64,000 nucleotides of DNA, from NCBI GenBank assembly GCA_019637175.1, contig JAHBWD010000010.1, positions 126,715 through 190,714 on the forward strand, read 5' to 3'. The translations under genes were made by a program, and so were the position numbers. Below the pieces are notes generated by a model that saw nothing but the letters and a program-made list of their open reading frames with translations, was not told the origin of the DNA and made no database searches. The first letter of the stretch is position 1, and each line of letters opens with the position of its first letter. This document shows positions 29,393 through 30,059 of this stretch, piece after piece. This DNA is from Labilithrix sp. (lineage in GTDB: Bacteria > Myxococcota_A > Polyangia > Polyangiales > Polyangiaceae).

Positions 29393-30059
29393 TCAGAAGT
29401 CGCCACGAAGGTACTCCTTGAGGCGCCACGTGCGGCCCGTCGGGTGATCGACGACGACGCCTTCCTGACAGCGGATCGTGCGTCGCTTGTCGCCGCGCAT
29501 CCCGCTGCCCACCTGACCGCGGCGATCGGCGGCGCGCGACGCTTCGGCGTGCGCTCGCGCCCCCTCTTCGAGGCGCGCCGCGAGCCGCGCGCGCGCGATC
29601 GCGCGATTGCGGTGCTGCGATCGCTCGGTCTCGCAGTGGACCGAGAGCCCGGTCGGCACGTGGACGAGATCGATCGCCGAGCACGTCTTGTTGCGGTGCT
29701 GCCCGCCGGCGCCCGAGCCGCGCGTCGCGCGCCACGCGAGATCGCGCGGGTCGACGCTGACGGCGATGCCCTCCTGCTCCGGCAGGACGGCCACGGTGAT
29801 CGTGCTCGTGTGAACGCGGCCGCGCCGCTCGCCCGGCGGGATGCGCTGCCAGCGATGACCGCCGGCTTCGTCGGCGAACGCCTCCGCGACGCCCTCCCCG
29901 CTCACGCGCAGGATCGCGAGCCCGGGTTGATGATCGACGAGGGCGATCTCAAAGACGCCTCCGCTGCGCGCGCCTCTCGTAGATCGCCATCTGCTCGACG
30001 ACGAGGGCCTTGGCGTCGGCGCCGCCCTCGGCGGCGCGGATCTCGACGATGATGCTCAT
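29393..30059 (-). CDS. RF-H-like class II peptide-chain release factor paralog (no domain 1) requiring a programmed +1 ribosomal frameshift
   Basis: Frame 0 (ATG 30057-30059, SD GGAGG) gives MSIIVEIRAAEGGADAKALVVEQMAIYERRAQRRRL then UGA. The +1 frame continues EIALVDHQPG...GSGAGGQHRNKT... to the stop at 29393. The junction is colinear with RF2 domain 2 (EIRAGAGGTEA...WAERRGF|KTEII). Shift site GGAGG-CGT-CTT-TGA-G matches the prfB site AGGGGG-UAU-CUU-UGA-C. Confidence 0.75.

Follow-up and report, generated by a model that had tools for sequence, protein, structure and literature searches.

The 64,000-nucleotide (nt) stretch of Labilithrix sp. contig JAHBWD010000010.1 analyzed here (the window) carries a release factor (RF) gene that is written in two reading frames (Table 1). 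A short first open reading frame (ORF0) stops at a UGA placed directly after a CUU codon, and the larger part of the protein follows in the +1 frame, which is already open upstream of the junction, continues without a gap to the terminator of the joined gene, and encodes EIALVDHQPG...GGQ...LRGDF. The mRNA around the site reads CAG CGG AGG CGU CUU UGA GAU. Omission of the U of UGA joins the two parts at ...RRRL/EIALVDHQPG... (the slash marks the junction; junction peptide RRRLEIALVDHQPGLAILR). A reading of this DNA made from the letters alone (the sequence-only reading) had proposed that a +1 shift is needed at CUU UGA and that the site has the architecture of the frameshift site of prfB, the RF2 gene. 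Both proposals were upheld, as the 36-codon ORF0 and the open +1 frame are colinear with an RF across the junction, and GGAGG, the 3-nt spacer, CUU, and the in-frame stop are all present.

Table 1. Positions of the RF gene and its elements in the window (SD, Shine-Dalgarno)
Feature	Position	Strand	Remarks
Whole gene	30059-29393	-	One gene; two frames joined by a +1 shift give a protein of 221 amino acids
SD sequence for the ORF0 start, AAGGAGG	30072-30066	-	6 nt 5' of the ATG; read from the sequence
Start codon ATG	30059-30057	-	Opens ORF0
ORF0, frame 0	30059-29949	-	36 codons + UGA; protein MSIIVEIRAAEGGADAKALVVEQMAIYERRAQRRRL; helix alpha-5 region of RF domain 2
Internal SD-like GGAGG	29962-29958	-	3 nt 5' of the slippery codon; putative frameshift stimulator
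Spacer and E-site codon CGU	29957-29955	-	Third-position U kept family-wide, with any amino acid
Slippery codon CUU	29954-29952	-	Leu, P site
ORF0 stop UGA	29951-29949	-	In-frame, directly after CUU
Shift site CUU UGA G	29954-29948	-	Base after the stop is G at 29948
+1-frame part	29950-29393	-	185 codons + UGA; remainder of domain 2, domains 3 and 4
PPG tripeptide	29839-29831	-	At the position of the RF1 PxT stop-codon 'anticodon', by alignment with RF1
GGQ catalytic motif, GGC GGG CAG	29707-29699	-	Invariant in the family alignment
True stop of the joined gene, TGA	29395-29393	-	End of the +1 frame

The joined product is a class-I RF paralogue that derives from RF1 (PrfA) and lacks domain 1, and we refer to it as mini-RF1. 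Pfam placed the C-terminal half of the PCRF domain at residues 2-89 and the RF-1 domain at residues 98-205 of the joined protein. The top NCBIfam matches were the RF1 equivalogs NF001859 (199.9 bits; cut-off 400) and TIGR00019 (197 bits; cut-off 423), which aligned over profile positions ~105-338 only; the scores amount to half of the cut-offs for full-length RF1 because domain 1, which RF1 possesses, is missing. The prfB model scored 121 bits and the prfH model TIGR03072 scored 88 bits, the latter under its cut-off of 166.65. A sequence search of the PDB returned RF1 as the best match (E=6e-44), with residues 4-219 colinear with residues 112-335 of E. coli RF1 across the junction, whereas PrfH was matched at E~1e-12 and in the GGQ domain only. 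ORF0 itself corresponds by homology to RF1 residues ~112-147. Modeling of the joined protein by AlphaFold2 gave a predicted local distance difference test score (pLDDT) of 89.7, reaching 93-97 over residues 1-40 (the ORF0 part), and no break at the junction. The model superposed on ribosome-bound RF1 over domains 2-4 with template modeling (TM) scores of 0.89-0.91 and root mean square deviations of 2.3-2.5 Å, compared with a TM score of 0.67 for PrfH. These data overturned the RF2-like or RF-H-like identity assigned by the sequence-only reading. Its description of a protein of 221 amino acids without domain 1 and without an RtcB neighbor was correct (the neighbors encode Exo_endo_phos and PfkB-family proteins).

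The decoding loop is of the RF1 type (GGHRWQRIPPGERRGRVHTS; QRIPPGE..RVHTS in the window and QRVPATE..RIHTS in RF1). The Thr residue of PxT is replaced by Gly in the window protein (PPG), and the relatives carry PPT, PPN, or PPS at this position, with PPT in approximately half of them. GGQ, the decoding Gln, His-Thr, the Pro of PxT, and the switch-loop motif GSGxRxD[KR]xRT are all conserved. An identity with ArfB/ICT1 was rejected, as NF006718 gave 45.5 bits against a cut-off of 100 and the complete decoding superdomain is present. PrfH (RF-H), the ribosome-repair partner of RtcB, resembles the window protein in being a short class-I RF homologue with GGQ but without domain 1; however, it forms a separate clade with a diverged decoding domain that recognizes damaged 16S rRNA, whereas the decoding loop of the window protein is RF1-like. 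This identity was also rejected, on the TIGR03072 score, the TM score, and the genomic context: no rtcB gene was found at the window locus or among the related loci whose neighbors were listed. Domain 1 of RF1 contacts RF3 and the L11 stalk, and we know of no recoding reported for prfA.

Relatives of the gene were collected from metagenome contigs and IMG/VR by a DNA scan anchored on the family motif HRWQR[IV]PP. This anchor lies ~94 nt downstream of the site, so the result is unbiased with regard to the site itself. A profile search of genome contigs via the universal GGQ pattern matched only canonical RF1 genes (L001-L080). The scan gave 114 unique genes that encode the N-terminal helix one frame behind the body and need a +1 shift. 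The codon before the stop was CTT in 113 of these genes and TTT in the remaining one. The stop was TGA at 76 sites, TAG at 36, and TAA at 2, and it was followed by C at 87 sites (76%), G at 19, A at 5, and T at 3. CGGAGG occupied positions -12 to -7 at 62 of the 114 sites, and an SD core of at least 4 nt was present at 90. The E-site codon ended in U, whatever amino acid it encoded, at 82 of the 114 sites, compared with T at 15.7% of third positions overall. Conservation in orthologues, the check suggested together with the original proposal of a shift site, was thus strongly positive.

Comparison with other parts of the genes confirmed that these features are particular to the site. CTT was found at the site in all 55 unique metagenomic relatives (55/55) but accounted for 10.7% of the Leu codons in the remainder of these genes. 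SD-like matches of 5 nt or longer were found in 55% of the site windows and in 8% of control windows, and the modal spacing between the SD-like element and CUU was 3 nt (29/41). The frameshift-type proteins carrying the site have a median pairwise identity of 52%, with values as low as 35%. Upstream of the site, frame 0 showed a mean amino-acid identity of 0.60 and no stops, and the other frames showed 32% and frequent stops; downstream, frame +1 showed a mean identity of 0.39 and no stops. The constraint therefore changes frame exactly at the site.

Among the 120 closest protein relatives, 112 could be classified. Forty-two of these are single ORFs (218-235 amino acids) that cover the whole query; single-frame relatives match the joined window protein residue for residue. 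The other 70 lack the N-terminus or begin with a 'junk' start in the +1 frame, such as ...RSGGVFEIALL, the translation of CGG AGG CGU CUU UGA in that frame. The difference between a single-ORF relative and the frameshift type is essentially one extra T (CTC GAC and CTT T GAC): the single-frame gene at L204 reads CGA AGA GGT CTC GAC GTC, and the frameshift type reads CGG AGG GGT CTT TGA CGT C. In the DNA of six of the closest relatives, CUU UGA was also present (L081-L083 and L209-L211), on contigs with a guanine-cytosine (GC) content of 0.67-0.72 and ordinary bacterial gene neighborhoods; L083, L210, and L211 show a separate 36-amino-acid ORF0 in the original gene calls. The same site was found at L168 of the metagenome scan, likewise a high-GC locus in ordinary bacterial surroundings, which groups with the window gene in a crude neighbor-joining tree. 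The frameshift, UGA/UAG, and single-ORF states are interleaved in this tree, which suggests that the shift site is old and has undergone repeated losses and stop-codon switches. No conserved RNA structure was detected near the site, as RNAalifold gave no consensus and Rfam no match; the prfB site is likewise without a conserved RNA structure.

The CUU-stop site was found at three or more codon positions in different clades, and some clades hold an in-frame UGA there. CTT TGA C lies ~10 codons downstream of the usual position at L105 and L198, and CTT TAG lies ~16 codons downstream of it at L094, L196, and six IMG/VR loci; L094 contains both an in-frame UGA and the CUU UAG shift site. In another set of relatives (L109, L116, L117, L126, L137, L151, L154, L166, L175, L176, L183, L193, L200, L337, L338, and 37 IMG/VR loci), the N-terminus and the body are encoded in one frame that is interrupted by one or two premature stops, mostly UGA and sometimes UAG. 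These stops recur 17, 22, 25, and 30-31 codons before the HRWQR motif, and the next base is always A or C. The set includes a gene on plasmid 2 of Variovorax sp. SRS16 (L337; NZ_LR594667.1, 62224-61520) with an in-frame GGC TGA CTC, which RefSeq divides into a 56-amino-acid 'hypothetical protein' and a 172-amino-acid 'peptide chain release factor-like protein', and a gene on pBSY19_1 of Bosea sp. RAC05 (L338; 2995-3696) with GCT TGA ACA that is otherwise intact. The true terminator was TAA in 10 of the 10 in-frame-stop genes checked and in 32 of 49 frameshift-type genes, even on contigs of 67-75% GC, at which TAA terminators are normally rare. The in-frame stops may be sites of programmed readthrough that gates these genes in the way the frameshift does.

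It is unlikely that an alternative genetic code explains the in-frame-stop members. The surrounding standard-code ORFs are dense and not split by TGA, TGA serves as an ordinary stop in a tiled operon at L166, and the Variovorax and Bosea carriers are cultured bacteria with the standard code. The genetic code was checked by counting same-frame ORF pairs split by one stop, which replaced a comparison of ORF coverage; coverage under the standard code and with TGA or TAG as sense was not discriminating, since moderate and high GC often give rise to long spurious ORFs. Translation of neighboring ORFs with TGA as Trp gave nothing interpretable, but tRNA arrays became visible. Selenocysteine insertion was rejected, as the positions and types of the stops vary and no structure is conserved, and transcriptional slippage was rejected, as the T run comprises only three bases.

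The family occurs on bacterial chromosomes and in huge phages, where it often lies inside tRNA arrays, and is largely phage-borne. Of the classifiable IMG/VR members, 66 were frameshift genes, 37 had premature stops in frame, and only 2 were clean ORFs; 31 of the 66 frameshift loci and 18 of the 37 in-frame-stop loci were inside tRNA arrays. Dense arrays of this kind are typical of huge-phage translation islands. They include 36 tRNAs in 14 kb at L123 and 37 tRNAs in 11.5 kb at L137, and dense arrays were also found at L087, L104, L198, L126, L175, L179, L148, and others, as well as at IMG/VR loci within L215-L334. The arrays around the gene often contained tRNA-Leu(GAG) or tRNA-Leu(AAG), the readers of CUU, and L143 had a tmRNA as well. 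The curated 485-kb genome of the huge phage LR745208.1 (L213) carries the frameshift type, and the 634-kb huge phage LR745206.1 carries the in-frame-stop type. The decoding loop of L213 is GGHRVQRTSNGRIHSS in place of QR[IV]PP[NT]E.RGR, and the family is therefore wider than the scan motif.

Potential amber suppressors, namely tRNAs with the anticodon CTA, adjoin 12 in-frame-stop loci. ARAGORN designated these tRNAs as tRNA-Pyl, and the loci with one nearby (L228, L243, L261, L262, L268, L271, L278, L289, L302, L306, L319, L321, and L322) are nearly all of the in-frame-stop type. No UGA-suppressor tRNA was seen in the stretches with CTA tRNAs. Previously described huge and recoded phages likewise carry RF genes among translation genes and beside suppressor tRNAs; these RFs were described as RF1 and RF2, and no domain-1-less form, frameshift, or in-frame stop was mentioned (PMC7162821; bioRxiv 10.1101/2021.08.26.457843).

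The single-ORF relatives P0010, P0012, P0036, and P0064 lie among many small ORFs without a Pfam match, in surroundings that look like mobile DNA, and some bacterial copies lie beside toxin-antitoxin or CRISPR genes. The window copy and its relatives in Myxococcota lack a tRNA array and are surrounded by ordinary chromosomal genes. No conserved partner gene was seen. In two Myxococcota-type loci, the second gene downstream belongs to the RNase R/II family (RNB), and a third has prfC (RF3) nearby (L083, 8257-10998; L209, 7898-9349; L211, 7617-9281), which are too few cases for an association.

Based on these data, we consider it probable that the window gene encodes an RF1-derived paralogue that is made via a +1 shift and whose synthesis is gated by slow termination. 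Ribosomes would initiate at the ATG behind its strong SD sequence, translate 36 codons, and pause once CUU occupies the P site and UGA the A site. Quick action of RF2 would release a 36-amino-acid peptide. If termination were slow, tRNA-Leu would slip from CUU to UUU, aided by pairing of the internal GGAGG with the anti-SD sequence of 16S rRNA, and GAG would then be read in the +1 frame to give the full protein; a drop in termination capacity would thus raise output. With its RF1-type decoding head and switch loop, the product would enter the A site, and its GGQ motif would hydrolyze peptidyl-tRNA without RF3. From the RF1-like head, switch loop, and GGQ, it is expected to be an A-site-dependent peptidyl-tRNA hydrolase that acts independently of RF3. 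The factor sensed in the window, where UGA is followed by G and the GC content is 70%, would be RF2. The proposal of the sequence-only reading that the site reports RF2 activity at UGA may hold at most for the lineage of the window, as a third of the family uses UAG, which is read by RF1, and the decoding residues do not change with the stop. UAA is read by both RFs. The near-absence of UAA, the C after the stop in 76% of the sites, and the CUU-stop sites at other positions speak for selection on the slow stop itself.

The site shares several properties with that of prfB. Both genes encode class-I RF homologues and begin with a short ORF0 that ends in CUU and an in-frame stop, with an SD-like element 3 nt upstream; in both, the +1 shift occurs (presumably, in the present case) by re-pairing of the P-site tRNA-Leu to UUU and needs no downstream RNA structure; and both show repeated loss of the site in some lineages and a preference for C after the stop, seen here at the level of the family. 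However, prfB encodes RF2 and has its site at codons 25-26 in domain 1, whereas the present site corresponds to approximately residue 147 of RF1, at the end of helix alpha-5 in domain 2. A site in domain 2 of a family without domain 1 points to an independent, convergent origin, and inheritance from prfB was rejected. Moreover, the prfB stop is the RF2-specific UGA, whereas the mini-RF1 family uses UGA, UAG, and occasionally UAA, has its sites at three or more positions where they alternate with in-frame stops, and is carried in many cases by phages.

Several observations weigh against a gate of this kind. The base after UGA in the window is G and not C; approximately a fifth of the sites are without an SD-like element, such as CGT CGC CGC CTT TGA at L209; and the stop varies between UGA and UAG from lineage to lineage, with no accompanying change of the decoding residues. 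The site has also been lost in favor of a single ORF in 42 of the 112 classifiable proteins, and a gate absent from so many relatives must be dispensable. Other objections concern the existence of the frameshift. The accession MBX3187488.1 belongs to a Labilithrix sp. metagenome-assembled genome, so the window is probably metagenome-assembled, and a run of three T could in principle be miscounted; nevertheless, the same break at the same codon with CTT-stop appears in 114 distinct sequences from independent assemblies, including the curated LR745208.1, and both frames are under protein-coding constraint, which leaves a sequencing or assembly error, or a recent pseudogene with a 1-nt insertion, with a negligible probability. 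It is also very improbable that the locus makes the 36-amino-acid ORF0 peptide and, separately, a truncated factor from the internal GTG at 29905. Gene callers annotate the locus in this way (the NCBI protein has 170 amino acids), and internal +1-frame starts exist in some relatives. However, the 15 +1-frame codons from the junction to the GTG (EIALVDHQPGLAILR) show conservation at the protein level, and both RF1 and the single-frame relatives have homologous sequence there; the first +1-frame start varies widely, with called proteins of 170-256 amino acids; and helix alpha-5, which ORF0 contributes and the GTG product lacks, is integral to the predicted fold of domain 2. The shared site, the constraint in both frames, and the one-T difference from single-ORF relatives together make an error, a pseudogene, or two separate products untenable.

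If the frameshift is real, it might still serve no regulation, setting a fixed low ratio of full-length protein to peptide or persisting as a tolerated 'frozen' feature. The lack of a tie between the stop and one RF (UGA, UAG, and rarely UAA) and the many losses of the site from genes that were kept agree with this view. We regard it as improbable, since proteins with no more than 35% identity have retained the site, which arose at three or more codon positions and interchanges with in-frame UGA there, and all of this speaks for selection on the premature stop itself; decoding speed is tuned by the avoidance of UAA and the preference for C after the stop; and in prfB, the one system studied experimentally, efficiency follows RF concentration. 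A true prfB-like autoregulation, in which mini-RF1 reads the stop at its own shift site, perhaps with relaxed reading of the second base through the Gly, Asn, or Ser that replaces Thr in PxT, is unlikely but deserves more weight. In its favor, prfB is known to be regulated by such feedback, the RF1-like decoding head and switch loop are conserved, and the residue that reads the second base in RF1 varies in the family (T, N, S, and G). Yet PPT occurs with both UGA sites (20) and UAG sites (15), a covariation test of stop type against protein columns found only the trivial junction residue and no decoding column, and codon specificity is not predictable from sequence. There is thus no support for a strict loop with the product reading its own stop, as UGA and UAG are used without a matching change of decoding residues, and a sensor of the RF2 or RF1 capacity of the cell is the more economical reading. 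It is possible, although still rather unlikely, that the gene is a mobile phage-derived module in phage-host conflict, with the window copy domesticated or horizontally acquired; its gate would then sense termination disturbed by infection, through suppressor tRNAs, code switching, or loss of host RFs, and not housekeeping RF levels. The location of approximately half of the IMG/VR members within tRNA arrays (31/66 and 18/37), the huge-phage genomes that carry the gene, the tRNAs with an amber-suppressor anticodon, and the bacterial copies beside toxin-antitoxin or CRISPR genes are consistent with such a module; the ordinary chromosomal neighbors of the window copy and its Myxococcota relatives, the lack of a PADLOC match, and the lack of a conserved partner gene weigh against it.

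Extending the gate by slow termination from the window gene to the whole family is more tentative, and we hold it with somewhat less than even confidence. The mini-RF family of bacteria and huge phages would be made only when a 5'-proximal premature stop is bypassed, by a prfB-like +1 slip at CUU-stop, evolved at three or more codon positions, or by readthrough of in-frame UGA or UAG at these positions, and would represent a general 'termination-failure switch'. Such a switch would supply a back-up or specificity-altering RF when RF1 or RF2 is limiting, trapped, or out-competed by suppressor tRNAs, and in phages it would be part of the tRNA-island and code-switch machinery.

In bacteria, conserved programmed +1 frameshifts outside transposons are very rare; the textbook example is prfB, for which the dependence of efficiency on RF concentration is well established. 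The mini-RF1 site would be a second, independently evolved case of the CUU-stop device, again in an RF homologue, and would strengthen the view of CUU-stop with an upstream SD-like element as a general sensor of termination speed. In agreement with the sequence-only reading, we found no earlier description of such a site: neither a frameshift in an RF1-like gene nor a domain-1-less form other than PrfH was described in the open-access literature, although absence there is not proof. The prfH paper (PMC1586002), a recoding review (PMC5009743), the GeneTack survey (PMC3711429), and a 2025 survey of prfB (PMC12421855) mention neither, and a survey of RF diversity covers RF1, RF2, ArfB, and PrfH only (PMC6514570). 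A prfB-type +1 site of independent origin in an undescribed mini-RF1 family would therefore be new, the device having so far been known for RF2.

These results define a class-I RF family that is derived from RF1, lacks domain 1, and is common in the tRNA islands of huge phages. They raise the questions of what role an RF without the RF3-interacting domain plays, whether phages and bacteria employ termination efficiency as a regulatory signal, and how stop-gated genes interplay with suppressor tRNAs and stop-codon recoding. Databases hold members of the family as truncated 'PCRF domain-containing' or 'release factor-like' fragments, as exemplified by the NCBI entry for the window gene, the 170-amino-acid 'PCRF domain-containing protein' MBX3187488.1. 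The joined proteins of the window and of L082 were absent as exact sequences from a collection of 15 billion proteins. Annotation pipelines should merge both frames.

The Exo_endo_phos gene lies upstream of the RF gene, the gene for the PfkB-family kinase follows 19 nt downstream, and a gene of the beta-lactamase family lies on the other strand. Promoter and terminator scans gave no result, and the window protein had no match in PADLOC. Elsewhere in the window, a tRNA-like gene at 43310-43381 on the minus strand scored 34.7 bits against the Rfam tRNA model (gathering score 29). Its acceptor stem is weak, and its anticodon loop comprises 8 nt, in which ARAGORN reads the four-base anticodon 'caac'; the gene is either a degenerate tRNA or an unusual one.

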